Assembly (NCBI GenBank): GCA_965224465.1
Contig: OZ245049.1
Location: 3,810,001-3,842,000, forward strand
DNA: 32,000 nucleotides
Reading direction: 5' to 3'
Origin: Flavobacteriaceae bacterium
Lineage (GTDB): Bacteria; Bacteroidota; Bacteroidia; Flavobacteriales; Flavobacteriaceae
Shown: one piece after another, positions 1 to 15,945 of the stretch
How the letters are laid out: each line of letters starts with the position of its first letter
Numbering within the stretch: the stretch's first letter is position 1
Notes under the pieces: model-generated
Seen by the model: the letters and a program-made list of their open reading frames with translations, nothing else
What the model was told of the DNA's origin: nothing
The model's database searches: none
Translations under genes and position numbers: made by a program

Positions 1-1229
1 CCTCCTATTGTTTCGTAGGCTTCCATTCTATATCGAATACTGGTGAGTAAATATTGAACCATTATAATGCTTATTTGTGCGATTTGAATATCAAAATTAG
101 TGGACTGACATTTTCCAAGACCAAACAACTGCTTAGCTTCTTTAAAAAACACTTCTATGGACCATCTGATACTGTATATTTCAATAGCCTTTACGAATTT
201 CAGTGTTGTGTCAGTTGATATTAACGTATGCCATTTGCCATTCTTTCCACGTTTTGAAATAAATACAGCAACCTTAAGACCGTCAATTTCAGTTATGTAA
301 TGATGGTAGTAATAATTGAATTTACGGCATCGTTTTGGTTTTATTTTCTGTTTTTTGAGTTGTGACAAGGTTTTAATCTTTGATTTAACTTCAATTTTAC
401 TGTTGTATTTATACATTCCTATAATATGAGTTAAGCTACTAATGTCCCGTAACTTTCTAAGTAATTTAACACTTGTAAACCAACTGTCTATTAAGATGTA
501 ATCTACAGGTACCTTACGTTTTATAAGCCTTGAGAACATTTGCACCAACAAGTCTGTTTTCTTTTTATTGAGTTCCTGATACCTTTTTGCTGCAATTGTT
601 TTACTACATCTCGGCGTTTTCTTTTGAAGTCTACGTTGCTTTGCTGTTAGTCCGTATTTTAATTTTGATGTTTTACTTTCACGGTGTAAACTAAAATCAA
701 CAGGAATAAATACACTTCCGTTCCAGTAACCAGCAACAAGTAGTTTATAACCTAGGTAATACGTTTTTGATACATGGTTGTATATTTTTGAAACACCTTC
801 AATTGTCTTTCCTGTTTTAGAAAGATCAGTATCATCAAAGATCAAGCATCTTGTAGCATCTTTAGATGGAGTAAAGAACTCTTCTTTTAATAGATATTGC
901 TTCACAAACTGAGCTAGAAAAACCCTCCAATTTATCTTTTGATTTGCTAGGATTCGATAGTATGAATCTTTACCAGACTGACCTAATCCTTTGTCTTTAT
1001 TGCTTGTAAGTCCATGAATAGAGTCAAATCCAATAATAGGTAAAATTAAAAGTGTAGAAATCAAATTACCGAATGAAATCCCCGATTTCTTACACCAACT
1101 AAACTTGTTTTTAATTTTATTGAATCCTAAAATATTTAGATGTGCTTGTAGGTATTCTGAACTAAGCCAAATCTTATTAAATTTTCCTTTTATCTCCTGT
1201 GTTTTTGTGATATCTTCGTGTTCTAGCAT
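1..1229 (-). CDS. IS4-family DDE transposase; the C-terminal end runs off the window start
   Basis: Absent from the ORF track because it has no stop in the window. Manual minus-strand translation from ATG (1229-1227) is open for 409 codons: MLEHEDITKTQEIKGKF... Catalytic blocks are CLIFDDTDLSKTGK (D), YILIDSWFTS (D) and YSIRWSIEVFFKEAKQLFGLGKCQS (E plus the Y-R-E-K signature typical of IS4/DDE_Tnp_1). Confidence 0.85.
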   Translation of the reverse strand, partial: MLEHEDITKTQEIKGKFNKIWLSSEYLQAHLNILGFNKIKNKFSWCKKSGISFGNLISTLLILPIIGFDSIHGLTSNKDKGLGQSGKDSYYRILANQKINWRVFLAQFVKQYLLKEEFFTPSKDATRCLIFDDTDLSKTGKTIEGVSKIYNHVSKTYYLGYKLLVAGYWNGSVFIPVDFSLHRESKTSKLKYGLTAKQRRLQKKTPRCSKTIAAKRYQELNKKKTDLLVQMFSRLIKRKVPVDYILIDSWFTSVKLLRKLRDISSLTHIIGMYKYNSKIEVKSKIKTLSQLKKQKIKPKRCRKFNYYYHHYITEIDGLKVAVFISKRGKNGKWHTLISTDTTLKFVKAIEIYSIRWSIEVFFKEAKQLFGLGKCQSTNFDIQIAQISIIMVQYLLTSIRYRMEAYETIG

Positions 1230-1342
1230 GTTTTGTACTTTCTTGTTCGTACTTAAAAGTACAATAAAACCAGGGGATTACCTTGGTTTTCATGCTATTT
1301 ATTTTCACTTAAACACCTGTAAATGATGGGTGCGAAACTTGA
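1..1342 (-). mobile_element. Partial insertion sequence (IS4 family). The inner boundary is approximate and the outer end lies outside the window.
   Basis: Transposase CDS plus ~110 nt of upstream non-coding sequence. The reading frame of the adjacent + strand gene opens abruptly at 1343, right after an in-frame TGA at 1340-1342. The terminal inverted repeat cannot be defined because the other end is not in the window. Confidence 0.55.
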
Positions 1343-1360
1343 GTTATTTATAATCCTCCA

Positions 1361-1993
1361 ATGTTAGATGATGGGGAAACCCCAGAATATGTTGGCAAAG
1401 AAAGTTATTCGGGTAGTTTTGAATTTGAAGCAACTTTACCTTATAAAAAAGAAGTTGATTGGTTTAAATTCGAAGATTTAAGGAATTCACCAAATATTCA
1501 ACAGGAAGTACTAGTAGCATACAAAGAAATAGGGCGGTTGTATGAAAGTGGGGATTTTGAAACTCTGTTACAACTATATGATCCCATATTTAAAACTGAG
1601 GCACAATCCACTTTTGCTACTAAAGAAAGATTAGACTATTTAAATGTTCCTGACAGGATTCACCCTTTTTTATATAAATCGAAAGTTGTATTAGATCCTA
1701 ATTATGAAATAAAATTTTATGCTGACGGAACATTAGTAGCTTTGAAAACGAAAACTTCTGAACGGAATTATTCTAAATCACCATTAACGATTAGATATGA
1801 TAAAGATTTTGATCTTTTGCCAGAGAGTGCAAATGTAAATTCTAAAGAATTAAAACTTAATCTCAGTGGTACGATTCCGAAAAAAGAAATGGAATTATAC
1901 TTATTCTTCTATAAACCAAAAGGATCAAATACTTTAAAATTAGCTACAGATATTTTTAGAGAGGAAAAATTATTAAATCCAATAGAAGATTAA
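1361..1993 (+). CDS. Hypothetical protein, probably a 5'-truncated remnant of a longer gene
   Basis: 210-aa ORF with normal-looking composition, no signal peptide and no recognisable domain. The frame is already open from 1343 (VIYNPP before the first Met) and abuts the IS. Its stop overlaps the next ATG (TAATG at 1991-1995). Confidence 0.5.
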   Translation: MLDDGETPEYVGKESYSGSFEFEATLPYKKEVDWFKFEDLRNSPNIQQEVLVAYKEIGRLYESGDFETLLQLYDPIFKTEAQSTFATKERLDYLNVPDRIHPFLYKSKVVLDPNYEIKFYADGTLVALKTKTSERNYSKSPLTIRYDKDFDLLPESANVNSKELKLNLSGTIPKKEMELYLFFYKPKGSNTLKLATDIFREEKLLNPIED

Positions 1994-2267
1994 TGAGATT
2001 AGGTAAACACATATTTCAGCATATAAAGATCATTTTTTTGATGAGTCTTGTTTTTTGCACCGCTTGTGGGCAAACAAAAAATCAAAAAAACGAGATGAAC
2101 ACTTAAATTCTGATTCTAAAACAACAAAGAATGAATGTAATGGTTCCGTAATTTCTAAAATTTCCTTGAAAGGTCAAGATACTAAAATGATATACAGGAG
2201 CGTTAGGTATGCGAAAAGCATGAAAAAAGAAGCTGTATTTTTAGAGTCTCGGATGCATAATTTATAA
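1993..2267 (+). pseudogene. Small lipoprotein gene, apparently frameshifted in an A-tract
   Basis: ATG 1993 encodes MRLGKHIFQHIKIIFLMSLVFCTACGQTKNQKNEMNT* (signal peptide with a lipobox-like TAC|G), stopping at 2104-2106. The track ORF 2055-2267 continues in another frame. One extra A in the A7 run (2084-2090) or the A6 run (2076-2081) would fuse them into a ~91-aa product. Confidence 0.35.
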
Positions 2268-2572
2268 AAAATAAAAACAGTATATAACGGGGCTTTTCCC
2301 TGTAAATACGAGTACTCTAATCATAGGGTTAGAGCGAAATTAATGGATATCTAGCTGTATTTTAAGGAAGAATACCATTGTATGAGAAGGGTTTTGGCAC
2401 TAAAAACATGTCGAATTTACATGTGAGTGTCTGTTATTCAGTTTTTTAGTGAAATTAGGAAATAGCGTCTGTTATTTTCGGAGATGATTTGATTTAAAAA
2501 CAAAAACCAACGATAGAAAAAAAGAAATTTAGAGGGGGGATTTAAAAAAGCTTACAACTAAAAAAAACTTAA

Positions 2573-2580
2573 TATATTTG
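2573..2580 (+). promoter_or_regulatory. Candidate Bacteroidota -7 promoter box (TATATTTG)
   Basis: Matches the TAnnTTTG consensus, 30 nt upstream of ATG 2610. No clear -33 TTG was seen. Confidence 0.35.
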
Positions 2581-2609
2581 ATGAAAATAACTGCTAATAA
2601 CTAAAAAAT

Positions 2610-3611
2610 ATGAGTGCAAATAAAAACAAAATGTCTAATCATTTAGACTCATCTGTAATCCGTTTCTTTATTCTTGCTTTTTTTGTTTCAGCTTCTGTTT
2701 TAGCTTATAGAGCAACACGATATTCTCCCTGTAAAGAAGTTGTATTTATTGTAAAAACAAAAGATCTTGTAGAAGGGAAACTTGTTAAATTTGTAGACAA
2801 TACTTCTAATGCTGTTTCGTGGGAATGGGATTTTGATGATGGTTCTAAAGTAATAACAAATAAGGAGGCTTTACATGTTTTTAAAAAACAAGGAGCGTAT
2901 AATGTAAGGTTGCGAGTGAATGGAATATGTCAAGAAGTTCAAAAAATAATTATAAAAGAAAGGCCATTTATTATAGATGTTACAAAACTGGCAGTGTTTA
3001 ATTTACCCGCATCTATTATTGTAGGCGAAGAACTTGTACTTAGTGATAAAACTCCGAATGCAACTACATGGGAGTGGCGTTTTGGGGAAACAGCAGGGGT
3101 TAACTCAAAAAAGAAGTTAGCAAAATACACCTATGAAACACCAGGTTTAAAAACGGTGTCTCTTATTGTCAATGGTGATATTAAACATGCTACTAATAAA
3201 AAAATTGATGTGTTGCCTTTAAGAAGGGAAGAGGTTCAAGTAAACGTAATCGCTTCGGTTAATAGAACTGTAGGGAGACGAATTTCTAACGCACCTACTT
3301 CGGAAGCTTTAGGGCAACATGCAAATGCCTCTAATACTGACAAGGATGAAATACCGTATATCACGGGGAATTCGTTTAAAAAGAAGCTAATGTTAGTTTC
3401 TCAAAAGAAATTAACTGCTGATGCTTTTAAAGAATATTTATGTGGTGATTTGAACAAAACTATTATTGTAAACGGAGAGAAAACTACCTTCTTAGAATTT
3501 TGTGAACTTATTAAAGAAAAAAATCTTAAAGTAAAAGAAGTTAAGCTATACAGAAATGATAACAACTGTATTACAAATATCACAATCAAAAGAAGTAAAT
3601 ACATCCTTTAA
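2610..3611 (+). CDS. Membrane-anchored protein with two PKD domains and an unassigned C-terminal domain
   Basis: 333 aa. Short basic N-terminus (MSANKNKMSNH), then one TM helix (VIRFFILAFFVSASVLAY). Two PKD-type repeats follow: FVDNTSNAVSWEWDFDDGS...GAYNVRLRVNG and LSDKTPNATTWEWRFGETAG...GLKTVSLIVNG. The last ~120 aa are unrecognised. Confidence 0.85.
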   Translation: MSANKNKMSNHLDSSVIRFFILAFFVSASVLAYRATRYSPCKEVVFIVKTKDLVEGKLVKFVDNTSNAVSWEWDFDDGSKVITNKEALHVFKKQGAYNVRLRVNGICQEVQKIIIKERPFIIDVTKLAVFNLPASIIVGEELVLSDKTPNATTWEWRFGETAGVNSKKKLAKYTYETPGLKTVSLIVNGDIKHATNKKIDVLPLRREEVQVNVIASVNRTVGRRISNAPTSEALGQHANASNTDKDEIPYITGNSFKKKLMLVSQKKLTADAFKEYLCGDLNKTIIVNGEKTTFLEFCELIKEKNLKVKEVKLYRNDNNCITNITIKRSKYIL

Positions 3612-3622
3612 AAATTAATGAC

Positions 3623-4783
3623 ATGAATACACCTGTTACAAAACATAGGGTTAATTGGATTGATGGAATGAAAATCAATAAAAATCATTTTATCGATTCA
3701 GAAAATTCATTATTATCATTGCTCGAAAGAAGTCTTAAAAATAGCATTACACCCATTAATTTCGGGATTATACCTATGTATAACGATGGGCAGGAATCCA
3801 TTGATATTTCTATATCTTTAGACGGTCAAGATTCGATAGAAGTTGTACTAAACGCATGTATAGGTATTACATTAAGTGGTAGTCTGGTCTATATTACACC
3901 AGAAACAAAAGAGTTGCTAGAGCAATCTGGTTATATATTAAAACACCAATACACGTTAAATAAAGAAGAGAAAGAATGGTATGTGGTTCTTACAGTAAAC
4001 CCTTACAATACGATTCCTGTTGGGAATGCAGATCCAGAGGAAGAGCCACCTAGACATCCAGGTACGTTACCGGAATATAAAATAAGTGTTTTGTCCAAAT
4101 CTGAAATAACAAGTAAAGAAATTGGCCTGTACCACCTTACTCTTGGGAAAATTATTTTAGTAGACGATGTGCCAAAGCTATGCGAAGATTTTATTCCGCC
4201 ATGTACCTCGGTACAAAGCCATGTAGATTTAAAATCCTCCTATACACAATTAGCTTCTTTTTTAAACCAAATGGAAGCGTATTGCATGCATATTATACAG
4301 AAAATACATCAAAAAAAACAAACCAACGATTTAGCACACATGGTGTTGCATGTTTCAGAAAGAACCTTGCAATATTTAAACAATACAATTTCCGAATTTA
4401 GGCTTGTAGACAAGTACGCACCACCTATAGAGATGGTAACAAAACAAATTAATTTGGCAAGAACCATTAAAAGCAGCTTAGATGTCTATATTGGTACTGG
4501 AAAAGAGGAATTGTTAAACTATTTGACCGATTGGTGTGATCTGAATCAAGGAGCGTTTGAAAATGTATTGATTGATATGATTGATCTAGAATATGTACAT
4601 ACGGATATAAATGTAGTATTACTAAAAACGGGATCGTTTACTAAATTAATGTTGTCCTTGTTTAAGAAATTAAACGAATTAGATTATATCGGTAAGAAGA
4701 ACGACTCAAATATATTTGTAAAAGAAGAAATAGTAAGTGCGGACAAGGAAATAAAAAACCGAAGAAGCTTTTTATTAGATTAA
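3623..4783 (+). CDS. TssK-like protein (type VI secretion baseplate subunit family), shorter than canonical
   Basis: 386 aa, starting 11 nt after the PKD gene stop. N-terminal HRVNWIDGMKINKNHF resembles the TssK N-terminal block (W-x-EGM-x-L-x-P-x-HF). CEDFIPPCTSVQSHVDL resembles the conserved TssK FIPP-x-L hinge between shoulder and neck. A helical-looking middle region follows. Confidence 0.6.
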   Translation: MNTPVTKHRVNWIDGMKINKNHFIDSENSLLSLLERSLKNSITPINFGIIPMYNDGQESIDISISLDGQDSIEVVLNACIGITLSGSLVYITPETKELLEQSGYILKHQYTLNKEEKEWYVVLTVNPYNTIPVGNADPEEEPPRHPGTLPEYKISVLSKSEITSKEIGLYHLTLGKIILVDDVPKLCEDFIPPCTSVQSHVDLKSSYTQLASFLNQMEAYCMHIIQKIHQKKQTNDLAHMVLHVSERTLQYLNNTISEFRLVDKYAPPIEMVTKQINLARTIKSSLDVYIGTGKEELLNYLTDWCDLNQGAFENVLIDMIDLEYVHTDINVVLLKTGSFTKLMLSLFKKLNELDYIGKKNDSNIFVKEEIVSADKEIKNRRSFLLD

Positions 4784-4922
4784 AAACGTACAACAAGAAG
4801 AATACTAAGCACAGTTTTAAAGCCTATTTATAGATAAACGGAGAAAGACCTCTAAAAAAAGAGAACTGCTGCTGCCGTGTTTCTAACTTGGGGTACTTCA
4901 GAAACAAATCCTTATAATAAAT

Positions 4923-4946
4923 TGGGACAACATTAATGTTGTCCCA
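4923..4946. terminator. Perfect palindromic hairpin downstream of the TssK-like gene
   Basis: tgggacaacattaatgttgtccca forms a ~10-bp stem. There is no strong T-tract on either side, so intrinsic-terminator function is uncertain. Confidence 0.3.
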
Positions 4947-5645
4947 AAAGATATAGAATACTTATTTAGCTAAAAACAGAACTTCTATTTGATGATATTG
5001 TTAAAGAGAATCTCTCTGAGGTAGTGCATAGGAATTCAAATGCTTAAAACTAAATAGAAACGCCTATTTTAAAGAAATAGAAGTTCCCTGTAAATTTAAA
5101 TATACAATTCCGTCTTCCTGTTTTTCGGATGAAATAATAGGGTTACAGGTGATGTTTTGTTGCCTATAGATGTTTCTACAACGCAGCGTGTTTTAGGAAC
5201 AGGTACCGCTGGTAAAAGTGTTTTTAGGGAAGACCCATCAAAAATAATAATTTGTGATAAAGCGATACAGAAAACGGATGTCGTACAAATTTAATCCCAC
5301 CAGTGGGTTTAATTCCCCGATGCTTACATCGAAATAATTAAGGTTTGTTCTTTTTCATGCCTCGTGGGCTTGCCCGAGGTTATTTACTAAGCATGCATAA
5401 ATATTCTTTGTTTTTAAATAGATTAGGGGTTATGAAGTGTTGGCGTACAGGTTGCAAAAGTTTTATTTCCAGAAAACAAAGGGTTCGCTTTGCGGCATCA
5501 TTAATTCCTACAGCGTTCCTACATCCTAAAAAAACACATAACAAGTCCAGGGGAAAAAGACAGCTGCTTTTGTTGTCAGATTAAGCGATCCTTTTCTGCG
5601 AAGGTTTAAAAAGAGGGGATAGGTATTTTTGAAGTATGTATGCCC

Positions 5646-6188
5646 TTATATTTCAAAATTTTCTCTAATGGTTCTAAAAGCTTTACTCATTTGTGCTTCT
5701 ACAGTTTTAACAGAGATATTCAAGGTGTCTCCAATTTCTTGGTAACGCAAGCCTTCTTTCTTACTCAGTAAAAATATTTCTTTACATTTCACAGGAAGCT
5801 TACTTATAATTTTTTTAATTTGTTGTAAGCGTTCTTTTTGATCGTTTTCTTGAAGGTCTATTCTTTCTAATAGCGCCTCGGATCTTAGTTGATCTAACAA
5901 TTCTAAACGGCTTTTTTCTTTGCGATATGCATCAATAAAATGATGGTAAACAGTACTGAATAAGTAGTTTTTTATGGAGGTATTGATCTCTATTGTGGCT
6001 CGTTTTTTCCACATATTTATAAAGGTTTCTTGCACGATATCAGCAGCTTTGTCTTTGTTATTTGTAAGTCCAGAAGCATAATAAAGTAAATCAGAGTAGT
6101 AGTGAGTAAACAAGAATTTATAGGCACTTTCATCTCCTGATTTTAGTGCTTTTACTAGGTTTTTATGATTGTTTAACACGGTTTTCAT
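5646..6188 (-). CDS. ECF-type RNA polymerase sigma-70 factor
   Basis: Region 2 (ADIVQETFINMWKK, YLFSTVYHHFIDAYRK) and a region 4 HTH (LRYQEIGDTLNISVKTVEAQMSKAFRTIRE). The start is set at the internal Met (MKTVLNNHKN, ATG 6188-6186). The track start at 6257 adds a low-complexity hydrophobic extension. Confidence 0.9.
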   Translation of the reverse strand: MKTVLNNHKNLVKALKSGDESAYKFLFTHYYSDLLYYASGLTNNKDKAADIVQETFINMWKKRATIEINTSIKNYLFSTVYHHFIDAYRKEKSRLELLDQLRSEALLERIDLQENDQKERLQQIKKIISKLPVKCKEIFLLSKKEGLRYQEIGDTLNISVKTVEAQMSKAFRTIRENFEI

Positions 6189-6337
6189 TAATAATAATTC
6201 CGATTTATACAAATAACTGAAAAATATCACAATTATAAAAATAAATAAATAAATCAATTTGTAAGGGTATTGTGTTTGAGTTGCGTCTTAAGAGTAATAA
6301 GGGTTAAATACACGCTTATGTTATTGAAAAGAAAGAA

Positions 6338-7534
6338 ATGGCGAGAAAAAATATCGATTTGTTAATAGTGAAATATTTTGACAATCAAATTACAGAAGTA
6401 GAGTTATTAGAGTTGCAAACGTGGGCACATAAAAATAAATCAGCTTTTAAGAGGGCTGTACAGTTGGATTTGGACATTCAAAAAAGTGTGAGTTCTAATA
6501 TGAATTCAGAAAAAGGTTTTGAAATATTCAAAGAAGAAATAACGTATGGTAAAGCAAGAGTGATGACACTATCAAAAAAAAGGTATTTAAAACAATTTTT
6601 GAAATATGCCGCACTTATATTGACTCTGTGTACTTTAGGATCATGGTATTTTTTCAGGAGTAATGAACGGAAACCTGCAATGGTTATAGTAGGAGTGTCT
6701 AAGGAAATTAAATTGGAGTTGGGAGACGGTTCTGTAAAAATTATTACAGAGGGGAAAGCGCAACAAATTCTAAATAATAAAGGAAAACTTATAAGTACTC
6801 AAGGAAAGGAAGTCCTTACTTATACCGCAACATCAACTAAAATGGAAATTTTAAAAGAAACGTATAATACTTTGTCTATTCCTTATGGAAGGACATTTAA
6901 GATAGTGCTGTCCGATGGTACAAGAGTAGCTTTGAATGCAGGCTCTTCTTTGCGATACCCTATTCGTTTTTGGAAAGAAGGACCGCGGAGAGTTTATTTA
7001 GATGGAGAGGGGTATTTTGAGGTAACTAAAAACACGGCTCAACCATTTATTGTCACTACAACTACACATGATATAAAAGTATTAGGGACTCGTTTTAATG
7101 TTAACTCGTACAAGGAAGAGAACACGATGGAAACTGTTTTGGTAGCGGGTGCAGTCGAAATTTATTCGCTAGATAAAACCTCAAAGAAAAACAAGGTGCT
7201 GTTGTTAAAACCAAAACAAAAAGCCTCTTGGGATTCTCTAAAAGGTCGGGTAACGGTTAGCTCTGTAGAAACAGCACAATACACGGCATGGGTGGACGGA
7301 GGTTTGCTATTTGTGAATACCCCGTTTTTAAAGATGATTCGACAAATAGAACGTCATTATAATGTGACTATTCAGAACAATTACAAGGCATTAGAAGGGT
7401 TTGTTTTTACAGCTACTTTTGAGCATGAAAATATTGATCAAGTGATGCGTGCAATCAAATTGTATGGACAGTTTTCTTATTCAATAAATAACAATCATAT
7501 AATCATTAATCAAACTTTAAATAACAAACGCTAA
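6338..7534 (+). CDS. FecR-family anti-sigma factor / transmembrane sensor
   Basis: 398 aa. N-terminal anti-sigma region, one TM helix (YAALILTLCTLGSWYFF) and a periplasmic FecR domain (YGRTFKIVLSDGTRVALNAGSSLRYP...VYLDGEGYFEV...HDIKVLGTRFNV). It is adjacent to an ECF sigma and an STN-bearing SusC. Confidence 0.9.
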   Translation: MARKNIDLLIVKYFDNQITEVELLELQTWAHKNKSAFKRAVQLDLDIQKSVSSNMNSEKGFEIFKEEITYGKARVMTLSKKRYLKQFLKYAALILTLCTLGSWYFFRSNERKPAMVIVGVSKEIKLELGDGSVKIITEGKAQQILNNKGKLISTQGKEVLTYTATSTKMEILKETYNTLSIPYGRTFKIVLSDGTRVALNAGSSLRYPIRFWKEGPRRVYLDGEGYFEVTKNTAQPFIVTTTTHDIKVLGTRFNVNSYKEENTMETVLVAGAVEIYSLDKTSKKNKVLLLKPKQKASWDSLKGRVTVSSVETAQYTAWVDGGLLFVNTPFLKMIRQIERHYNVTIQNNYKALEGFVFTATFEHENIDQVMRAIKLYGQFSYSINNNHIIINQTLNNKR

Positions 7535-7583
7535 TGAGAAAATAAGGACTATTATTTTTTACAAAAATAGACTTCACATAAAA

Positions 7584-7613
7584 AATCGGAAAATGTTGCA
7601 GCATTTCCCGATT
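7584..7613. terminator. Hairpin between the anti-sigma gene and repeat copy 1; the U-tract is only on the minus-strand side
   Basis: aatcggaaaatg / catttcccgatt pair at 11 of 12 positions with a 6-nt loop. The A6 run just upstream on the + strand gives a T-tail only for leftward transcription. Confidence 0.35.
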
Positions 7614-7628
7614 AGATGAAGTGATTTA

Positions 7629-7761
7629 ATACCAAATACATTTCCAAGTAACGGTTTAGAAATGGAATTATTTTTTGTTTTAGTTATCGTTTTATTTTTC
7701 AAAAACGCTAGAACGTAAAATAAACTATTTATATCGGTCATTTTGGATTGTAATTGGTGTA
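7629..7761 (+). repeat. MITE-like interspersed repeat, copy 1 (133 bp)
   Basis: ATACCAAATACATTTCCAAG...TTAGAAATGGAATTA...AAATAAACTATTTATATCGGTCATTTTGGATTGTAATTGGTGTA. The imperfect terminal inverted repeat is ATACCAAnTACA / TGTAnTTGGTrT. It is homologous to copies at 15359, 17451 and 24441. Confidence 0.85.
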
Positions 7762-7796
7762 AAATATTATTAAACCACAATTAACACCACAAAAGT

Positions 7797-10700
7797 ATGA
7801 AAAAAATCATATTTAATGGGGCGCTACATATAGTTCCCACTAAAATAAGTTTAAAAATGCGACTTACGACACTGTTACTGATAGTTTCACTGTTTAAGAT
7901 TCAGGCAAATACGTATTCTCAAAACACAAAAATTACGTTGAATTTAACAAACGTAACTGTATTGGATGTTTTGGAGAACATTGAATCTAAAAGTGAATTT
8001 AATTTTTTTTACAATAGCTCCGATTTTGATTTAAATAGAAGAGTTACCACACAAGTAAAAAAGAAATCTATCACTTATATTTTAGATCAACTATTTAAGA
8101 ATGTACCTGTTTTACATGCCGTTACAGATAGGCAAATTGTATTATATCCCAATCCGAATCCTAGTGTTCAAATAGAGCGTTCTGTGATTCGAAAAGCAAT
8201 AGAAATTAAAGGGATTGTAACAGATTCACAAGGGACTCCCTTGCCTGGGGTGAGTGTGGTTATTGTAGGGACAAGTAAAGGAGTAGAAACCGATTTTGAC
8301 GGGAATTTTACTATTGATGTGGATCTAGGAGATGTGTTAGAATTTTCATTTATTGGGATGAAAAAGGCGCGTGTTACTATAGGGATAAACACATTTATAA
8401 AAGTACAGTTAGAGGATGATGCAGCAGCACTGGAAGAAGTAGTTGTTGTGGGCTATGGCAGACAGAAAAAAGTAAATTTAACGGGAGCTGTAGGGATAGT
8501 CACAACAAAAGATATTGAAAACAAGCCCGTAACTAGTATTTCTAGCGCACTCCAAGGGACGGTTCCAGGAATGACTATTATTCAAAATAGTGGACAGCCA
8601 GGAAAAGATGGTGCGCAAATAAGAATACGTGGTATTGGGAGTTTAAATTCTTCTTCTAGCCCAATGATATTGGTGGATGGAATTCAATCTACTATGAATG
8701 ATATTGATCCAAATGATATTGCGAGTATATCAATTTTAAAAGATGCTGCTTCAGCCGCTATCTACGGAGTTAGAGCAGCGAATGGTGTCGTGTTAATTAC
8801 TACAAAAAAAGGAAGTAATACGCCTTTAAAACTCTCGTATAACTCATATGTTGGCTGGCAAAAAACCACACGTGAACCTAAAAAATTCTCATCAGCTGAG
8901 TATGCCGAGTTGTATAACGAAGCTTTGGTAAATTCTGGGAAACCTGTACTGTGGAGTAGCAGTGATATTTTGAAATTTAAAGACGGAAGTGATCCTGATA
9001 AATTTCCAAACACCAATTGGAGAGATTTGTTATATACGCAGTCGGGTATGCAACAGCAACATCACCTTAATGTTAAAGGAGGGAATAAAATATCACAATA
9101 TTCTTTTTCTATGGGGTATTTTAATCAGGAAGGTTTAATAAAAAATACAGCTACAAGAAGATATAATTTAAGAACTAATTTTAATCATAAAGTAAGTGAA
9201 AAACTGGATGTAGGAATGAATATTTCTTATAGTTTGACAAATACAATAGAGCCTACAAATCCATATGCAGGTGGATTAAGTCAAGTTATAAGACAGGTGA
9301 ATAGGATTGCTCCTTGGGTGCCTTATAAATACTCTGATGGTTCTTATGGTTATATTGGGGATGGGAATCCTATCGCTTGGTTAGAAAATGGAGGTACGAG
9401 TGATGTTGATTTATTAAGGAATACCATAATTGTGCATGGGGATTATAAAATACTTAAAGGACTTAAAGTGAGAGGACTAATGTCTTATAAAACCTTGTCT
9501 CATGTTATCGAGTCATTTACTAAAAGCATTCAGTTTTATGATTTTATATCTAAAGATCCTTCGTTATTTCAAGGGCCTAATGAGCAAAATGATTACCGTG
9601 CCAACACCTCTACCTTGGTTTTGAGGTATTTATTTGAATATGAAAAAGAAATAGAGGACCACACTATTAAAATATTAGCAGGGTACGAACAAGAAAACTA
9701 TAGGTTTGATTTTACCAGAGCTATTAGGAAGGATTTTTTAAATAATAAGCTTAAAGAAATTAATGCGGGATCAACTGATGGTCAAATTGGAAAAGGATCT
9801 GGGGAGGAATTGGCGTTGGAGTCTTATTTTGGAAGAATCAATTATGGCTATAAAGATACATATCTTTTAGAAGCAAATTTAAGACGTGATGGGTCTTCTA
9901 GATTTGCAAAAGATAATAGGTGGGGATTGTTTCCTGCTGTTTCTGCTGGATGGAGAATTTCTGAAGAAAGTTTTATGGAGGAATTGGAATATGTTTCCAG
10001 TTTAAAATTAAGAGCGTCTTGGGGATTGTTAGGGAATCAAAAGACTTCTTCTGGGTATTATCCTAGTATTTCAAGTGTTTCTTTGGGAGAAAATTATAAT
10101 TTTGGAGGAACAATTGCTCCAGGGGCATCCATTATAACGCCGGGAAATGCGGATATTCAATGGGAAACTACCGAGACCTATGATATTGGTTTAGACCTAT
10201 CATTATTGAATAATAGAATAACATTTTCTACAGATTATTTTAAAAAGAGAACAACCGATATTCTCTTGGATCTTCCTGTGTCAAAAATATTTGGGCTAAG
10301 TGCTCCAATTCAAAATGCGGGTACTGTAGAGAATAGTGGTTTTGAATTTCAGTTAGGTTTTAAAGGGAGATTGGATAAGGTTACCTATAATATTTCATCT
10401 AATATTTCATTTATAGATACAGAAATTATGGATTTAAAAGGTATAGATCCTGTTGTGAGAACCGGTGGAAGAACCGTTTGGGAAGTAGGCTTGCCTATAA
10501 ATACCTTTTATGGATATCAAAGTATGGGAATTTTTAATACAGCTGAGGAAGTGGCAAATCACGCGACCCAAAGAAGTGGAACCGGACCAGGGGACATTAT
10601 CTATAAAGATCAAAATAAGGATGGAAAGATCAATGGAGAAGATCGTGTAAGTTTAGGAAGTTGGGATCCAGGAATTACCTATAGTACAACCGTTAATTTG

Positions 10701-11156
10701 AATTATAAAAACGTTGATTTTAGTATTTTCCTACAAGGTGTTGCAGATGTAAAAGGATATGTTTGGGGAGAAGCTTTAGGTGGCATGAATGGATATACTT
10801 CAAATCCTTTAACTATTTATAAAGAGCGTTGGACGCCAGAAAATCACTCCAAAAAATTCCCGAGGTTATTGACAGCTTCAAATGTTCAAAATAGCCCAGG
10901 GAGAACTCCTTCTGATTTTTGGATACAAGATGCCTCTTATTTAAGATTAAAGAACCTTCAAATTGGATATAATATTCCGAAATATTTTTTGAAAAATTTG
11001 AATATTTCTAAGTTTAGATTTTATTATAGTGGGCAAAATTTAGTGACCTTAACTAATTTTATTGATGGTTTTGATCCAGAAGCTCCTGCAGGTACAAGAG
11101 GGAGCTACTACCCACAGGTAAAAACACATTCGTTAGGTATAAATGTTATATTTTAA
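7797..11156 (+). CDS. SusC/RagA-family TonB-dependent outer-membrane transporter with an N-terminal STN signalling domain
   Basis: 1119 aa. STN-like N-terminal extension (ITLNLTNVTVLDVLENIESKSEFNFFY...RQIVLYP). CarboxypepD_reg-like domain (IKGIVTDSQGTPLPGVSVVIVGTSKGVETDFDGNFTI). SusC plug signature (EEVVVVGYGRQKKVNLTGAV; ILKDAASAAIYGVRAANGVVLITTKKG). Terminal aromatic residue (...LGINVIF). Confidence 0.95.
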   Translation: MKKIIFNGALHIVPTKISLKMRLTTLLLIVSLFKIQANTYSQNTKITLNLTNVTVLDVLENIESKSEFNFFYNSSDFDLNRRVTTQVKKKSITYILDQLFKNVPVLHAVTDRQIVLYPNPNPSVQIERSVIRKAIEIKGIVTDSQGTPLPGVSVVIVGTSKGVETDFDGNFTIDVDLGDVLEFSFIGMKKARVTIGINTFIKVQLEDDAAALEEVVVVGYGRQKKVNLTGAVGIVTTKDIENKPVTSISSALQGTVPGMTIIQNSGQPGKDGAQIRIRGIGSLNSSSSPMILVDGIQSTMNDIDPNDIASISILKDAASAAIYGVRAANGVVLITTKKGSNTPLKLSYNSYVGWQKTTREPKKFSSAEYAELYNEALVNSGKPVLWSSSDILKFKDGSDPDKFPNTNWRDLLYTQSGMQQQHHLNVKGGNKISQYSFSMGYFNQEGLIKNTATRRYNLRTNFNHKVSEKLDVGMNISYSLTNTIEPTNPYAGGLSQVIRQVNRIAPWVPYKYSDGSYGYIGDGNPIAWLENGGTSDVDLLRNTIIVHGDYKILKGLKVRGLMSYKTLSHVIESFTKSIQFYDFISKDPSLFQGPNEQNDYRANTSTLVLRYLFEYEKEIEDHTIKILAGYEQENYRFDFTRAIRKDFLNNKLKEINAGSTDGQIGKGSGEELALESYFGRINYGYKDTYLLEANLRRDGSSRFAKDNRWGLFPAVSAGWRISEESFMEELEYVSSLKLRASWGLLGNQKTSSGYYPSISSVSLGENYNFGGTIAPGASIITPGNADIQWETTETYDIGLDLSLLNNRITFSTDYFKKRTTDILLDLPVSKIFGLSAPIQNAGTVENSGFEFQLGFKGRLDKVTYNISSNISFIDTEIMDLKGIDPVVRTGGRTVWEVGLPINTFYGYQSMGIFNTAEEVANHATQRSGTGPGDIIYKDQNKDGKINGEDRVSLGSWDPGITYSTTVNLNYKNVDFSIFLQGVADVKGYVWGEALGGMNGYTSNPLTIYKERWTPENHSKKFPRLLTASNVQNSPGRTPSDFWIQDASYLRLKNLQIGYNIPKYFLKNLNISKFRFYYSGQNLVTLTNFIDGFDPEAPAGTRGSYYPQVKTHSLGINVIF

Positions 11157-11159
11157 ATT

Positions 11160-12743
11160 ATGGAAAACATGAAAATTATTTTAAATTATAAAAGTATATT
11201 GTTTTTAGCGATCTTGTTCGTATTTGCCTCATGTGTGGATTTCGATAAAGAGCCTTTAGATGCTTTGTCTAAAGAAACATTTTGGTCCAATCAAAAAGAT
11301 GCAGTGACTGCTGTAAATGCGTGCTATAAAGGTTGGGAATCCGGAGGGAATATTATGTATTTGGATGCTGCTACAGATAATGCGTATAACCAATTCCCTT
11401 GGGAAGGGTATGCAGGTATTGGGAATGGTTCTTTTTCTCCAACGGATACTGGTGCAGCACGTTTTTCTTTTAAAACGATTAGAAAATGCAACGATGTATT
11501 AGAAAATATAGGAGGGATTGACATGGATGAAGCATTAAGAAACAGGCTGATTGGTGAAGTGCGTTTTTTAAGAGCGTATCAATATTTTATAATGACACAG
11601 TTTTATGGTGATATTCCTTTGGTTACAAGCGTTTTGACCTTGGACGAAGCAAATATGTCAAGAACATCAAAAACCGAAGTTGTTGCCTTTGTGATAAAAG
11701 AATTAGCAGAGGTGTCTCAAATGTTACCTCTTAGTTATTCAGGAGCTAACATGGGGAGGATAACAAAGGGAGCAGTACTAGGACTAAAAGCTCGAATGGA
11801 ATTGTTTGAAGAGAAATTTGAGGATGCTGCGACTACCGCAAAACAAATCATCAACCTTGGACGCTATAGCCTACTGCCAAGTTATATTGATTTATTTACC
11901 GAGGATTATGAAGATAATAACGAGGTTTTATTTGATGTTCAATATATAGAAAATGATTATTCAAACTGGTTACAAGGTGCTTTTTCTCCTGTTAAAGATG
12001 GTGGGTGGAGTTCTGTAACACCTACACAAAGCCTTGTAGATGCTTATGAATGTATCGACGGAAAAACAATTGTTGATTCTCCTCTGTATAATGTGGAACT
12101 GCCTTGTGCAAAAAGAGATCCTAGATTAGATGCAACCATCATATATCCTGGCGCAAAATGGGAAGGAAGATTTTACAATTCTATCGAAGAAGATTCTTCG
12201 GATTTCTACGAAAGGAATAATGCTTCTAAAACTGGATATAGCTCCAGAAAATACCTATATCCTTTGTCTGGATTTAATGATATGTGGAACAATGGGCTGA
12301 ATATTATGGCAATGAGATATGCAGAAGTACTGTTGATTTATGCAGAGGCTAAAGTAGAATCAAATCAAATGGATCATACAGTTATAGATGCATTAAATCA
12401 AATAAGAACAAGAGCAGGAATGCCTGTTGTTGACGAAGCTATTTATAACAATCAAACGAGTTTAAGAACTCTTATAAGACGTGAAAGAAGAGTAGAATTA
12501 GCAATGGAAGGTTTGCGTTGGTTTGATATTAAAAGATGGAAAATAGGAGAAGAGGTTTTAAGTAAACCTGTTACTGGATCAAGATTAGGAACAGTTAATT
12601 CCGATACTGGTGAAGTCAAATTTATTGGTTTAGATCATATTCAAGTAGAAAACAGAGTTTTTACGAGCCGTAATTATTTATGGCCTATTCCTCAATCAGA
12701 AATAGATATAAATTCAAATTTAACTCAGAACCCAGGCTACTAA
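11160..12743 (+). CDS. SusD/RagB-family nutrient-binding outer-membrane lipoprotein
   Basis: 527 aa, starting 3 nt after the susC-like stop. Lipoprotein signal (LFVFASC). SusD-type blocks: VRFLRAYQYF, MRYAEVLLIYAEA, IRRERRVELAMEGLRWFDIKRW, YLWPIPQSE. Confidence 0.95.
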   Translation: MENMKIILNYKSILFLAILFVFASCVDFDKEPLDALSKETFWSNQKDAVTAVNACYKGWESGGNIMYLDAATDNAYNQFPWEGYAGIGNGSFSPTDTGAARFSFKTIRKCNDVLENIGGIDMDEALRNRLIGEVRFLRAYQYFIMTQFYGDIPLVTSVLTLDEANMSRTSKTEVVAFVIKELAEVSQMLPLSYSGANMGRITKGAVLGLKARMELFEEKFEDAATTAKQIINLGRYSLLPSYIDLFTEDYEDNNEVLFDVQYIENDYSNWLQGAFSPVKDGGWSSVTPTQSLVDAYECIDGKTIVDSPLYNVELPCAKRDPRLDATIIYPGAKWEGRFYNSIEEDSSDFYERNNASKTGYSSRKYLYPLSGFNDMWNNGLNIMAMRYAEVLLIYAEAKVESNQMDHTVIDALNQIRTRAGMPVVDEAIYNNQTSLRTLIRRERRVELAMEGLRWFDIKRWKIGEEVLSKPVTGSRLGTVNSDTGEVKFIGLDHIQVENRVFTSRNYLWPIPQSEIDINSNLTQNPGY

Positions 12744-12755
12744 ATTGACATAGAT

Positions 12756-12796
12756 AAACCACCTGTTTAGATGATATCTAATGGGTGGTTTTTTTT
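12756..12796 (+). terminator. Rho-independent terminator after the SusD-like gene
   Basis: aaaccacctgtttagat...atctaatgggtggttt forms a long imperfect hairpin followed by a T8 run. Confidence 0.6.
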
Positions 12797-12839
12797 AGCT
12801 TAAAATTTAGAGGTCTATGAATGTAAAAAATGTATAGCA

Positions 12840-15356
12840 ATGAAAAACAATCAATTACGTATTATTTTGTACCTGTCTTTTGTGATTGTTCTTTTTACTC
12901 AATGTAAAAAAGTGACGCCACAGAACAAAACGTTATTTAATGCAGACTGGGAATTTATTCGATTGGATAAACAGGCAATTAATTCTGCTCAAATCCAAAA
13001 TCAAGGGACTGGCTGGAAGTCTCAATATAACGTAACTCATGTGGAGACTCATGATACTTTGAGTATTGACAAAGATGTATTAAAGAGAGAGTTTTCCCTT
13101 TTGGAATTTATTAAATGGGAAGCTATTACAATACCTCATACACCAAAAATTGAAGATTTAACAGTGCTAAAGCAATGGCAAGGGACTTGTTTTTATAGGA
13201 AAAAATTTAAAGCAGACCTGGACTGGAAAGAACACGTTTTATATATTGAATTTGAAGGTGCCATGCATTTGGCTGACATTTGGATCAATGGAAAACATGT
13301 TTTTCAACATGCAGGTGGGTATACCCCCTTTGTTATAGATGTTACAAGGGATTTAAATTTTGGAGTGTTTAATGAAATTATGGTTAGATTAGACAATAGG
13401 GACAATGCTCTAATCCCCCCGGGGAAACCAGTAAATAAATTGGACTTTAATTATTATGGAGGGATCTATCGCGATGTACATTTTATTATTAAAAATAAGA
13501 TTCACATAACACATCCATTATTAGCCAATGAAATAGCAGGAGGAGGGGTTTTTGTCAGCTATCCAGAAGTGACGAATAAAAAGGCATCAATACATATACA
13601 AACTCAGGTGCTTAACCAATTAGAAGTGTCGTCTGTTGTTGAAGTAAAACAAAAACTTATACAAATTGAGGGGCTTTTTAAAAACAGAAAAACAGGAATT
13701 GAAGTAGCTAGTACAAAAAAGTCTGTGCTCCTTTTAGCAGGGGAATCGTTACATGTTAAACAACAAATTTTGTTAAAAAATCCTAGGTTGTGGTCTCCAA
13801 ATGCACCTTATCTGTATGTATTAAAGACAGAAGTTATTAAAAATGGTGCAATTATAGACCGTGAGGAAAGACGTATTGGTATTCGGAAAATCAACTTTAC
13901 AAAAAAAAATGGATTCGAAATAAATGGAGAAAAAATAAGGTTGGTAGGAAGTAATAGACATATGGAATACCCATATATAGGCAATGCAATTTCCGATGAG
14001 GCACAATATAGAGATATGTACCATATCAAGGAAAGTGGATTTAATACGGTGAGATTGGGACATTATATACAAGACAAATCTGTATTAGATGCTTGTGATG
14101 AATTAGGGATTTTAGCCATTGAACCTATTCCTGGATGGCAATTTTTTAATGCAAATAAACAATTTTGTGACCTTAGCTATAGGGATATAAAATATATGAT
14201 TCGTAGGGATAGAAACCATCCTTCTATTATTATGTGGGAAGTGATTTTAAATGAAGCTTGGCCACCTACTTGGTGGAAAGATAAAGCGTATGCCGTTGCA
14301 CATGCAGAGTATCCAGGGAATCAGTTTTTTACTGCGGGTGATAGTTATGATTACTATGGATGGGATGTTCAATATAACGATTGGGAAGAGGGTTTTAAGA
14401 GACCAAATAATAGTGAAAAAGCGGGCTTTATAAGAGAGTATTATGATTACGAATTTGGAGGGCATTACAGTACAACTAGGGTTAAAAGAGGTGATGGAAA
14501 AAAGGCGCTTCAGCAAAATGCATGGAATGCCCAATGGTCTCATAATAGGTATAGAGCTATGTATCCTCAAACTTCGGGGGATGCAATTTGGAGTATGTAT
14601 GATTATAATAGAGGCTGTTGTGATAATATTTGTCTGAGTGGAATTGCAGATGTTTTTAGAATTAATAAGTTCAGTGTCCCTTTTTTTAAAAGTCAGATGT
14701 TTATAGGACAACCACTGCCTTCTGGACTGTTTAAACCATACATGTTTATTGCAGATTATTGGGATAAGGAGTTGGTTGATAATAAGATTGTAGTGTATGC
14801 CAATGTAGAAGAAGTGGCTTTGGAAATTAACGGAAAAGTAGTTGTGAAACAACAATGCGATGCCGGACCTAATAGTACGTATGGAAACGGAAAAGATTCG
14901 TGGCATGCTGGAGGGAATCCTTTTGATGGTGGGAATGTTATTAATTTAGAAAATCCTCCGTTTACTTTTAAAAATATAGCATGGGAAAAAGGAAGGTTAA
15001 GCGTGATTGGCTATATGGATGGAAAGCCCGTATCTACACATAAAATAGAGACTCCAGGAGTTCCTGCGAATTTAACAATCGATTATTTTGAGTCTGGAAA
15101 ACAGGCTTCTGTAAATGATGTTTTGATTGTTTATGTTAAAATTAAAGATGTAAATGCAACACTTTGTGTAAAAAATGCGTCTGAGATTGTTCTAAAAGTG
15201 ATTGAAGGAGGAGAAATAGTGGGGCCTGATAAGGTGAATGCGGAAGCTGGAATAGCTGCGTTTATTGTAAAAACAAATAATGTGAGTCAGTTAATTCTGA
15301 GTGCATCATCTGCATTTGCTCATAAAAAGAAAATGATTGCACTAAAAAACAAATAG
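12840..15356 (+). CDS. Glycoside hydrolase family 2 (beta-galactosidase / beta-glucuronidase-like) lipoprotein
   Basis: 838 aa. Lipoprotein signal (VLFTQC). GH2 sugar-binding block (FNADWEF...IEFEGAMHLADIWINGKHVFQHAGGYTPFVIDVT). TIM-barrel blocks (GSNRHMEYPYIGNA...GFNTVRLGHY, DRNHPSIIMWEVILNEA, FIREYYDYEFGG). Confidence 0.9.
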   Translation: MKNNQLRIILYLSFVIVLFTQCKKVTPQNKTLFNADWEFIRLDKQAINSAQIQNQGTGWKSQYNVTHVETHDTLSIDKDVLKREFSLLEFIKWEAITIPHTPKIEDLTVLKQWQGTCFYRKKFKADLDWKEHVLYIEFEGAMHLADIWINGKHVFQHAGGYTPFVIDVTRDLNFGVFNEIMVRLDNRDNALIPPGKPVNKLDFNYYGGIYRDVHFIIKNKIHITHPLLANEIAGGGVFVSYPEVTNKKASIHIQTQVLNQLEVSSVVEVKQKLIQIEGLFKNRKTGIEVASTKKSVLLLAGESLHVKQQILLKNPRLWSPNAPYLYVLKTEVIKNGAIIDREERRIGIRKINFTKKNGFEINGEKIRLVGSNRHMEYPYIGNAISDEAQYRDMYHIKESGFNTVRLGHYIQDKSVLDACDELGILAIEPIPGWQFFNANKQFCDLSYRDIKYMIRRDRNHPSIIMWEVILNEAWPPTWWKDKAYAVAHAEYPGNQFFTAGDSYDYYGWDVQYNDWEEGFKRPNNSEKAGFIREYYDYEFGGHYSTTRVKRGDGKKALQQNAWNAQWSHNRYRAMYPQTSGDAIWSMYDYNRGCCDNICLSGIADVFRINKFSVPFFKSQMFIGQPLPSGLFKPYMFIADYWDKELVDNKIVVYANVEEVALEINGKVVVKQQCDAGPNSTYGNGKDSWHAGGNPFDGGNVINLENPPFTFKNIAWEKGRLSVIGYMDGKPVSTHKIETPGVPANLTIDYFESGKQASVNDVLIVYVKIKDVNATLCVKNASEIVLKVIEGGEIVGPDKVNAEAGIAAFIVKTNNVSQLILSASSAFAHKKKMIALKNK

Positions 15357-15358
15357 TA

Positions 15359-15522
15359 ATACCAACTAAAATTCCAAGTGACGGTTTAGAAATGGAATTA
15401 ACTTTTGTTTTAGTTATGTAAAACAAAAGCTAAGGATAGCCTTAGTTATCGTTCTGTTTTTTAACAAGTCTAGCATGTAGAACAAACTATTTATATCGGT
15501 TATTTTGGATTTTAATAGGTAT
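15359..15522 (+). repeat. MITE-like interspersed repeat, copy 2 (164 bp, expanded centre)
   Basis: Starts 2 nt after the GH2 stop. It has the same ends and core blocks as copy 1. The centre carries two extra hairpins (cttttgtttta/taaaacaaaag and ctaagg/ccttag). Confidence 0.85.
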
Positions 15523-15945
15523 TGTTCCTCTGATTCTCTTGTTGATTTGTAGAATAAGAAAAATAATAGTGCACTAAAAAAGCAAGGTTTTCTACTTTTT
15601 TTTAAAATCTCAGTTGTGTAAAATATATTTGTAATGATATAAAAATGAAAAAGACTCGATTTATAGCAGTGTTTTGGGCTAAAAAGGCTTGAATGATTGC
15701 CCTGATATAAGAGTTGCTTATTTTTTGCGAGTGATAAGCGTATTTTGTACTTTTATCAAAATATACATTTGTTTTGCATTTCAAATTAGAGAAGGGATCC
15801 TTTTTACTAAAAACAGAATGGTTCTTTAGTGTATTTGATTTAGTCAAATTTTGAAGAGTACAAAACGCAAAGGTATAAAACAGAGTAGGAATAGGATTAA
15901 AGGCGTAAAATAAATCAGTAAAAACAGCTATAAAAAGCACAAATA

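Follow-up and report, generated by a model that had tools for sequence, protein, structure and literature searches.

Two adjacent genes in a 32,000-nucleotide stretch of a Flavobacteriaceae bacterium chromosome (assembly GCA_965224465.1, contig OZ245049.1, positions 3,810,001 to 3,842,000; the whole stretch is hereafter the window) encode a protein resembling TssK, a baseplate subunit of type VI secretion systems (T6SS), and a membrane-anchored protein with PKD domains. Do these genes belong to a T6SS, are they the remains of one, or do they serve another role? A preliminary description of the window, made from its letters alone, had left two possibilities, the edge of a Bacteroidota T6SS(iii) locus cut by an insertion sequence (IS) and a stand-alone module with a role outside secretion. 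We conclude, with a probability of about 0.85, that the pair comprises tssP and tssK of a Bacteroidota T6SS(iii) and forms a satellite locus whose parent T6SS lies elsewhere on this chromosome. The finding falls within already known biology and requires no new biology. The two open reading frames (ORFs), separated by 11 nt, were confirmed where the preliminary description had placed them:

2610..3611, plus strand: tssP, T6SS(iii) membrane-complex subunit, 333 aa (ORF, PKD_4/PKD matches, AlphaFold2 model, Foldseek, published layout)
3623..4783, plus strand: tssK, T6SS(iii) baseplate subunit, 386 aa (ORF, TIGR03353, Foldseek, alignment, synteny)

Identification of TssK

The TIGR03353 (TssK) profile matched residues 8-255 of the 386-aa protein over profile positions 1-239 of 429 (E=1.8e-9). 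An AlphaFold2 model built on 51 homologs (mean predicted local distance difference test score (pLDDT) 78.6, predicted template modelling score (pTM) 0.74) consists of a beta-rich shoulder at ~47-186 (extending to ~190) closed by FIPPC (190-194), long neck helices at 201-287, and an extra three-helix region at 294-352; residues 360-386 are disordered, and pLDDT is below 50 in the tail (353-386). In a Foldseek comparison of this model with the PDB, the best 13 matches were exclusively TssK structures (5y0e, 6n38, 5mwn, 5m30 and 6giy) with E-values from 2.9e-9 to 1.6e-5 and probability 1.00, and the next match had E=0.017. The shoulder and helical-neck fold of TssK is present in the 386-aa model according to AlphaFold2 and Foldseek, and the family assignment proposed in the preliminary description is borne out by both profile homology and fold.

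The two motifs that had been regarded as most diagnostic of TssK are present and are a family-wide property rather than a chance resemblance. In an alignment of 35 family members ranging from Flavobacteriaceae through Chitinophagaceae and Bacteroidales, residues W12, G15, M16, I18, N19, K20 and F23 of the N-terminal motif (10-23) are invariant, and I191, P192, P193 and C194 of the hinge are conserved in at least 90% of the sequences. The canonical T6SS(i) TssK of Proteobacteria (5M30, 5MWN, 6N38, 6GIY, 5Y0E) shares the shoulder and the neck with the window protein in both sequence and fold, and the W-x-x-G-M...F motif and the FIPP hinge are found in both.

We detected 749 homologs of the 386-aa protein; the best 120 are all ~385 aa long, 57-83% identical to it, and mostly labelled hypothetical. 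Full-length orthologs located in T6SS(iii) loci (35-83% identity) come from Flavobacteriaceae, Chitinophagaceae, Bacteroidales, Weeksellaceae and Hymenobacteraceae. The nearest match in the genome collection belongs to Tenacibaculum geojense (77%), and orthologs from Bacteroidales metagenome-assembled genomes (MAGs) are 37-39% identical. Homology and fold identify the 386-aa protein as TssK of the Bacteroidota T6SS(iii) type.

Identification of TssP

The 333-aa protein has a short, basic N-terminus predicted to be cytoplasmic and a single transmembrane (TM) helix at residues 14-37 of the model, in agreement with a Kyte-Doolittle maximum of 2.0 at residue 14. Pfam assigned PKD_4 to two stretches (E=1.3e-18) and PKD (E=9.7e-14). 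In the AlphaFold2 model (mean pLDDT 86.9), PKD-like beta domains at ~45-116 and ~125-202 are followed by a disordered linker (203-250) and a compact alpha/beta C-terminal domain (~251-330). A Foldseek search recovered tandem PKD/Ig domains, its matches being dominated by the PKD part, and left the C-terminal domain of the protein unassigned. The single TM helix and the two PKD repeats noted in the preliminary description are therefore supported by Pfam, the Kyte-Doolittle profile and the model.

In the published description of Bacteroides fragilis TssP, one TM helix (1-32) precedes two PKD-like domains (33-109 and 110-192) and one more periplasmic domain (Bongiovanni et al. 2024, PMC10781749). 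The window protein shows the same four-part layout. On the basis of this layout and of its locus position, the 333-aa protein, earlier treated as an unassigned partner of TssK, is TssP, a published membrane-complex subunit. The B. fragilis TssK (BF9343_1924) and TssP (BF9343_1920) belong to the same system type, and the T6SS(iii) of this species requires TssP for its function, with TssP binding the lipoprotein TssR (Bongiovanni et al. 2024, PMC10781749). The tssR gene is absent or unidentifiable in 31% of T6SS(iii) systems (Bongiovanni et al. 2024, PMC10781749), and no tssR-like gene was identified near the tssP-tssK pair in the Flavobacteriaceae loci.

Duplication of tssP was observed in some Aquimarina loci (L002/L003, 7745-9889; L044), where two tandem paralogs of 339 and 329 aa precede tssK.

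Gene neighborhoods in the window and in related loci

The preliminary description had reported no other T6SS or phage-tail genes in the 32 kb, and this was upheld by profile hidden Markov models (HMMs), tblastn and Pfam. HMMs for TssB, TssC, TssE, TssF, TssN, TssO, the TssG candidate, Hcp, VgrG and ClpV gave zero matches among the ORFs of the window, and a tblastn search of the window with the ORFs of four related loci returned the tssP-tssK pair only. Pfam assigned the remaining large ORFs to a polysaccharide utilization locus (PUL), a resistance-nodulation-division (RND) efflux system, DUF5686, an MMPL transporter and a class II tRNA synthetase; no phage genes were seen among these assignments.

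Comparison of the window with 87 related loci (88 loci in total) revealed a consistent association of the pair with T6SS(iii) genes. At least one other T6SS(iii) gene was found in 86/87 related loci and at least three in 80/87; the lone exception is a 2.5-kb contig that holds just the pair. The gene directly upstream of tssK is tssP in 55/87 loci and tssN in 28/87, and tssO is located 3' of tssK in 69/87.

Several types of organization were distinguished. In Olleya (CP058987, L001) and Aquimarina (L002/L003), the order TssE-TssF-TssP-TssK-TssO lies within a full T6SS(iii) locus, accompanied by a divergent block of NlpC/P60, a 304-aa TssG candidate, TssN, two Hcp genes, VgrG and TssC. In T. geojense (L004), the pair is adjoined by TssC (PF17541, E=4.8e-234), a 150-aa TssB-sized gene and a ClpV-type ATPase. 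As Pfam is silent on the 150-aa and 304-aa proteins, their TssB and TssG labels reflect size and position only. The TssK-TssP pairs of Olleya, Aquimarina and T. geojense are orthologous to that of the window, with TssK 58-77% identical, the same protein lengths and the same tight spacing; their flanks differ, with tssE-tssF upstream and tssO downstream in Olleya and Aquimarina, clpV-tssB-tssC upstream in Tenacibaculum, and the IS and a truncated immunity-like gene in the window. In L086 and L087 (TssK 77% identical), VgrG-Hcp-TssC-TssB-ClpV occupy one strand and TssP-TssK are divergent, with housekeeping genes directly 3' of the pair and no tssO. A Polaribacter MAG (L084), whose TssK is 83% identical, has ClpV alone next to the pair, and L026 contains TssP-TssK-TssO only. 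Since these closest relatives (L086/L087, L004, L084 and L026) hold only subsets of the system beside the pair, the Polaribacter/Tenacibaculum-like clade spreads its T6SS genes over several loci. T6SS(iii) loci are often split (Bongiovanni et al. 2024, PMC10781749), and because of this scattering a normal T6SS(iii) component can look like an orphan in a window-sized view.

The gene order known from B. fragilis (tssG-like, tssN, tssK, tssO) is kept in the related Bacteroidales and Chitinophagaceae loci; in Chitinophagaceae, tssP follows tssO (TssG-like, TssN, TssK, TssO, TssP), mirroring the B. fragilis order tssN-tssK-(tssQ)-tssO-tssP. Unlike in the B. fragilis tssQOPR block, tssP of Flavobacteriaceae is located immediately 5' of tssK. 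Also unlike B. fragilis, the clade of the window shows no tssO beside the pair, and in the window itself no other T6SS gene is near.

Two features of the related loci were observed in addition. In the Bizionia-type loci (L005, L006, L007, L010, L011, L013), the gene after tssK is not tssO and encodes a ~229-aa protein matching the Hcp profile, which could be an extended Hcp or a fusion. Most Flavobacteriaceae T6SS(iii) loci have a conserved NlpC/P60 peptidoglycan-hydrolase gene between the TssG candidate and tssE (in L001, at 5440-6465, it also has a CarboxypepD_reg domain), and its product may remodel the cell wall to accommodate the apparatus.

The pair as a probable satellite locus

Evidence for the remainder of the system came from the same chromosome. 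Using TssC of T. geojense as a query, we found a full-length 447-aa TssC (P0136) that is 89% identical and attributed to the source chromosome; by tblastn, it is not encoded within the 32-kb window. The source chromosome thus very probably carries an intact tssC elsewhere, which is strongly although indirectly indicated. Within the window, tssP and tssK are full length and keep all invariant residues, and their ratios of nonsynonymous to synonymous substitution rates (dN/dS) against the closest relative, averaged over the whole divergence, are 0.055 for tssK and 0.21 for tssP. Both genes are intact and under purifying selection.

A proximal promoter region also appears to have been retained:

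2556..2609, plus strand: conserved promoter-proximal leader of tssP, containing TATATTTG (blastn, alignment)

By blastn, the 55 nt before the tssP start are 84% identical to the corresponding region of the Polaribacter relatives L084 and L085, and the similarity ends farther upstream. The consensus of the Bacteroidota -7 promoter element is TAnnTTTG, and TATATTTG at 2573-2580, 30 nt ahead of the tssP start codon, fits it; the alignment shows this box conserved in the window, L084 and L086. A scan for sigma-70-type promoters was not enriched over shuffled sequences (11 found versus 15.9 expected).

These observations can be combined into the following model. TssK would act as the baseplate subunit joining the TssE/TssF/TssG wedge to the membrane complex via the cytoplasmic domain of TssN, and TssP would be the inner-membrane-anchored periplasmic subunit of the TssNQOPR membrane complex. 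In Flavobacteriaceae, tssP and tssK form a tightly coupled pair, which in the Polaribacter/Tenacibaculum-like clade ends one sub-locus, with a putative promoter of its own and no tssO after it. In the window, the IS and an IS-truncated immunity-like gene take the place of the divergent clpV, with or without tssB-tssC-hcp-vgrG. We regard the pair as a satellite locus because the clade splits its T6SS and the usual clpV neighbour is replaced here, and we infer that both genes are expressed and that their products assemble with the components encoded elsewhere. A satellite position is common for T6SS(iii) and is made more extreme here through the IS. This result suggests that the source genome encodes an antibacterial type VI weapon with scattered genes, some of them reshuffled by the IS.

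Several points weigh against this assignment. On the side of protein identity, (i) the 386-aa protein scores 37.3 bits with TIGR03353 at a curated cutoff of 100, and 17.2 bits with PF05936 at a cutoff of 23.4 (E=0.0023); (ii) the sequence profile of its family found no solved TssK among the PDB sequences, its best matches being unrelated proteins with E=0.063 and above, and for this reason the fold search was needed; (iii) the Foldseek TM-scores of the TssK matches are only 0.37-0.60, moderate values of the kind to be expected when a multi-domain subunit of a trimer is modelled as a monomer; and (iv) the likeness to TssK and TssP of B. fragilis rests on published descriptions and not on direct sequence comparison. 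On the side of the locus, (v) among the loci of useful length, the window alone lacks another T6SS gene near the pair; (vi) the pair abuts the IS and a truncated gene, so that a recent rearrangement may have stranded it; (vii) the averaged dN/dS values are uninformative on the time since the IS arrived; and (viii) the attribution of P0136 comes from matching database records, not from reading the chromosome itself, and among the T6SS genes outside the pair it covers tssC.

Point (i) places the 386-aa protein outside the curated, Proteobacteria-centred boundaries of the family despite its significant TssK homology. It also carries a lesson for annotation: the TIGR03353 and PF05936 cutoffs miss T6SS(iii) TssK, and among public models none names TssP. 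Pfam and NCBIfam recognise only the PKD domains of the 333-aa protein, whose public name is "PKD domain-containing protein". Because the models miss both T6SS(iii) TssK and TssP, hundreds of orthologs exist of which the majority are annotated as hypothetical or PKD domain-containing.

Alternative explanations

Points (v) to (vii) leave room for a different history, in which an IS-mediated rearrangement cut off the pair and left a non-functional remnant, either unexpressed or belonging to an incomplete system elsewhere, that is intact only because the event was recent. Among the 88 loci, the window is alone in having no T6SS neighbour; the IS and the gene truncated by it lie directly upstream of the pair, the similarity to relatives stops 55 bp 5' of tssP, and there is no tssO in the window. 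However, both ORFs are full length with every invariant residue kept, the proximal promoter and its -7 box are still present, and an intact TssC is attributed to the same chromosome. Moreover, the closest relatives likewise lack tssO and have a split system, and split loci are normal for T6SS(iii). We consider a stranded remnant unlikely.

The second possibility left by the preliminary description, an envelope module of TssK-like and PKD proteins that stands alone and acts outside type VI secretion, is much harder to sustain, and we judge it very improbable. It would account for the absence of any other T6SS gene from the 32 kb and for a TssK that falls under the curated cutoffs and has a non-canonical C-terminus. 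However, it is contradicted by synteny, as orthologs with 35-83% identity lie inside T6SS(iii) loci in 86/87 cases, and the non-canonical C-terminus is common to all those orthologs. In the genomes of a published survey, membrane-complex genes never occurred without other T6SS genes, and T6SS-free genomes had none (Bongiovanni et al. 2024, PMC10781749). The TssC attributed to the same chromosome likewise argues for membership of the pair in a T6SS.

The shoulder domain fold of TssK is linked to the receptor-binding proteins of siphophages, and the model does have weak partial fold matches (~175-195 columns) to a Lactobacillus phage tail protein or putative receptor-binding protein (E=0.033) and a Lactococcus phage protein (E=0.065), but a phage or tailocin receptor-binding or baseplate gene left by a prophage was rejected as an origin of the 386-aa protein, since a BFVD fold search gave no match at E<=0.001 as against the 13 TssK matches in the PDB, neither TssP nor TssK has a PHROG family, and the window holds no phage genes.

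The C-terminal third of TssK

The preliminary description had put the protein at about 60 aa below the length of canonical TssK and proposed that the C-terminal head, which normally docks to the membrane complex, is reduced or replaced. The shortness is real (386 aa, compared with 429 positions of the TIGR03353 profile and 425-442 residues in the full-length 5y0e crystal chains), yet it is true of the whole family, whose members in the alignment are 378-404 aa long. Canonical TssK ends in a head that is an alpha/beta domain, as in the structure from enteroaggregative Escherichia coli (EAEC). The window protein lacks this TssL/TssM-docking head: canonical profile positions 240-429 are unmatched, and its C-terminal ~130 residues show no detectable sequence match. 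Compared with canonical TssK, the protein is 40-60 residues shorter, and these ~130 residues are modelled as three helices followed by a disordered but conserved tail.

In B. fragilis, co-purification showed that it is the cytoplasmic domain of TssN, and not TssL/TssM, which recruits TssK of the T6SS(iii) (Bongiovanni et al. 2024, Nat Commun 15:429, PMC10781749). Whereas the partner of canonical TssK is TssL/TssM, that of T6SS(iii) TssK is TssN, which explains why the C-terminal third of the latter is non-canonical. The TssK proteins of B. fragilis and of the window are both baseplate subunits without the canonical head. Thus, the proposal of a reduced or replaced head holds as an observation but describes the normal state of T6SS(iii) TssK and no peculiarity of this locus.

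The tail of T6SS(iii) TssK (residues 353-386) is disordered and yet strongly conserved across Bacteroidota, with the signature YIGKK..IFVKEE...RRSFLLD (in its fuller form, Y-I-G-K-K-x-D-S-x-I-F-V-K-E-E ... R-R-S-F-L-L-D). How TssK is adapted to TssN was stated to be unknown by the authors who described the interaction (Bongiovanni et al. 2024, PMC10781749). As a tentative proposal, T6SS(iii) TssK may have swapped the canonical head for a short helical domain and a conserved disordered C-terminal peptide, and through this peptide the baseplate may dock to TssN, at its cytoplasmic domain, which is ubiquitin-like; a more local version, to which we give the same limited credence, is that of a working T6SS whose tssP-tssK satellite was split from all other components by an IS-mediated rearrangement. 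The tail as a TssN-docking candidate is a property of the whole family and not of this window. If docking does proceed through the tail, the open question of Bongiovanni et al. 2024 on the adaptation of TssK to TssN becomes directly testable.

Flanking regions of the pair

Four features were described around the pair:

1..1229, minus strand: DDE transposase gene of the IS, start codon at 1229, extending past the left edge of the window (DDE_5, E=3e-13; DDE_Tnp_1, E=1.4e-10)
1361..1993, plus strand: 5'-truncated lipoprotein-family fragment, 210 aa (aligns to the C-terminal ~210 residues of 300-363-aa proteins only)
4922..4947, no strand assigned: perfect 11-bp palindromic hairpin, 139 nt 3' of the tssK stop (terminator scan with minus-strand score, direct reading)
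5646-6257, convergent to tssK: gene of an extracytoplasmic function (ECF) sigma factor (ORF, Pfam)

The end of the IS lies between 1229 and ~1340, and an in-frame stop of the 210-aa ORF at 1340-1342 coincides with it. No Pfam or NCBIfam family matches this ORF; as its alignments cover only the last ~210 residues of 300-363-aa proteins, it is a truncated gene. A full-length homolog (P0347, 363 aa, with a lipoprotein-type N-terminus) was found in L088 (2041-9092), within an array made up of a DUF4280 gene and the genes for a 995-aa protein, a 323-aa paralog, a similar protein of 447 aa and the 363-aa homolog itself. The 323-aa paralog is encoded directly 3' of the 995-aa gene and has a similar lipoprotein-type N-terminus. 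The DUF4280 gene at the head of the array belongs to a PAAR-like Pfam family; a PAAR-like gene, a gene for a large protein and lipoprotein genes in a row are the usual layout of a T6SS effector/immunity island. The L088 array looks like such an island, with the 995-aa protein as a putative effector, and the fragment at 1361-1993 is probably what the IS has left of an immunity-type gene. This single locus suggests that the DNA to the left of tssP is T6SS accessory DNA interrupted by the IS. The earlier notion of a T6SS(iii) locus edge cut by the IS is therefore correct in that the pair is a piece of a T6SS(iii), as seen from the 86/87 related loci and tssC, and incorrect as to the target, the IS having hit an immunity-like lipoprotein gene and no core T6SS gene.

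Next to this fragment (window positions 1993-2267), the start codon of a 37-aa ORF that encodes a lipoprotein-like signal (LVFCTAC) overlaps the stop of the 210-aa ORF, and an out-of-frame 70-aa ORF (2055-2267) follows the 37-aa one; these two small ORFs may constitute a frameshifted small lipoprotein gene.

On the other side, the cluster ends, as described earlier, at a convergent gene, the ECF sigma gene at 5646-6257, reached after an 860-bp gap (4784-5645) without any ORF over 79 aa. Unfiltered profile searches of six-frame translations and tblastn revealed only noise in place of tssO or other T6SS remnants in this downstream gap and in the 615-bp upstream gap. An Rfam search of positions 1-8000 gave two far-sub-threshold chance matches and nothing credible. 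Judging from its sequence, the hairpin at 4922-4947 is a possible terminator of the pair.

The ECF sigma gene opens a PUL (5646-17322) that further encodes a FecR-type anti-sigma factor, a SusC-like TonB receptor with an STN domain, SusD, a GH2 glycosidase and a sulfatase. This composition points to a sulfated-glycan substrate, typical of marine Flavobacteriaceae.

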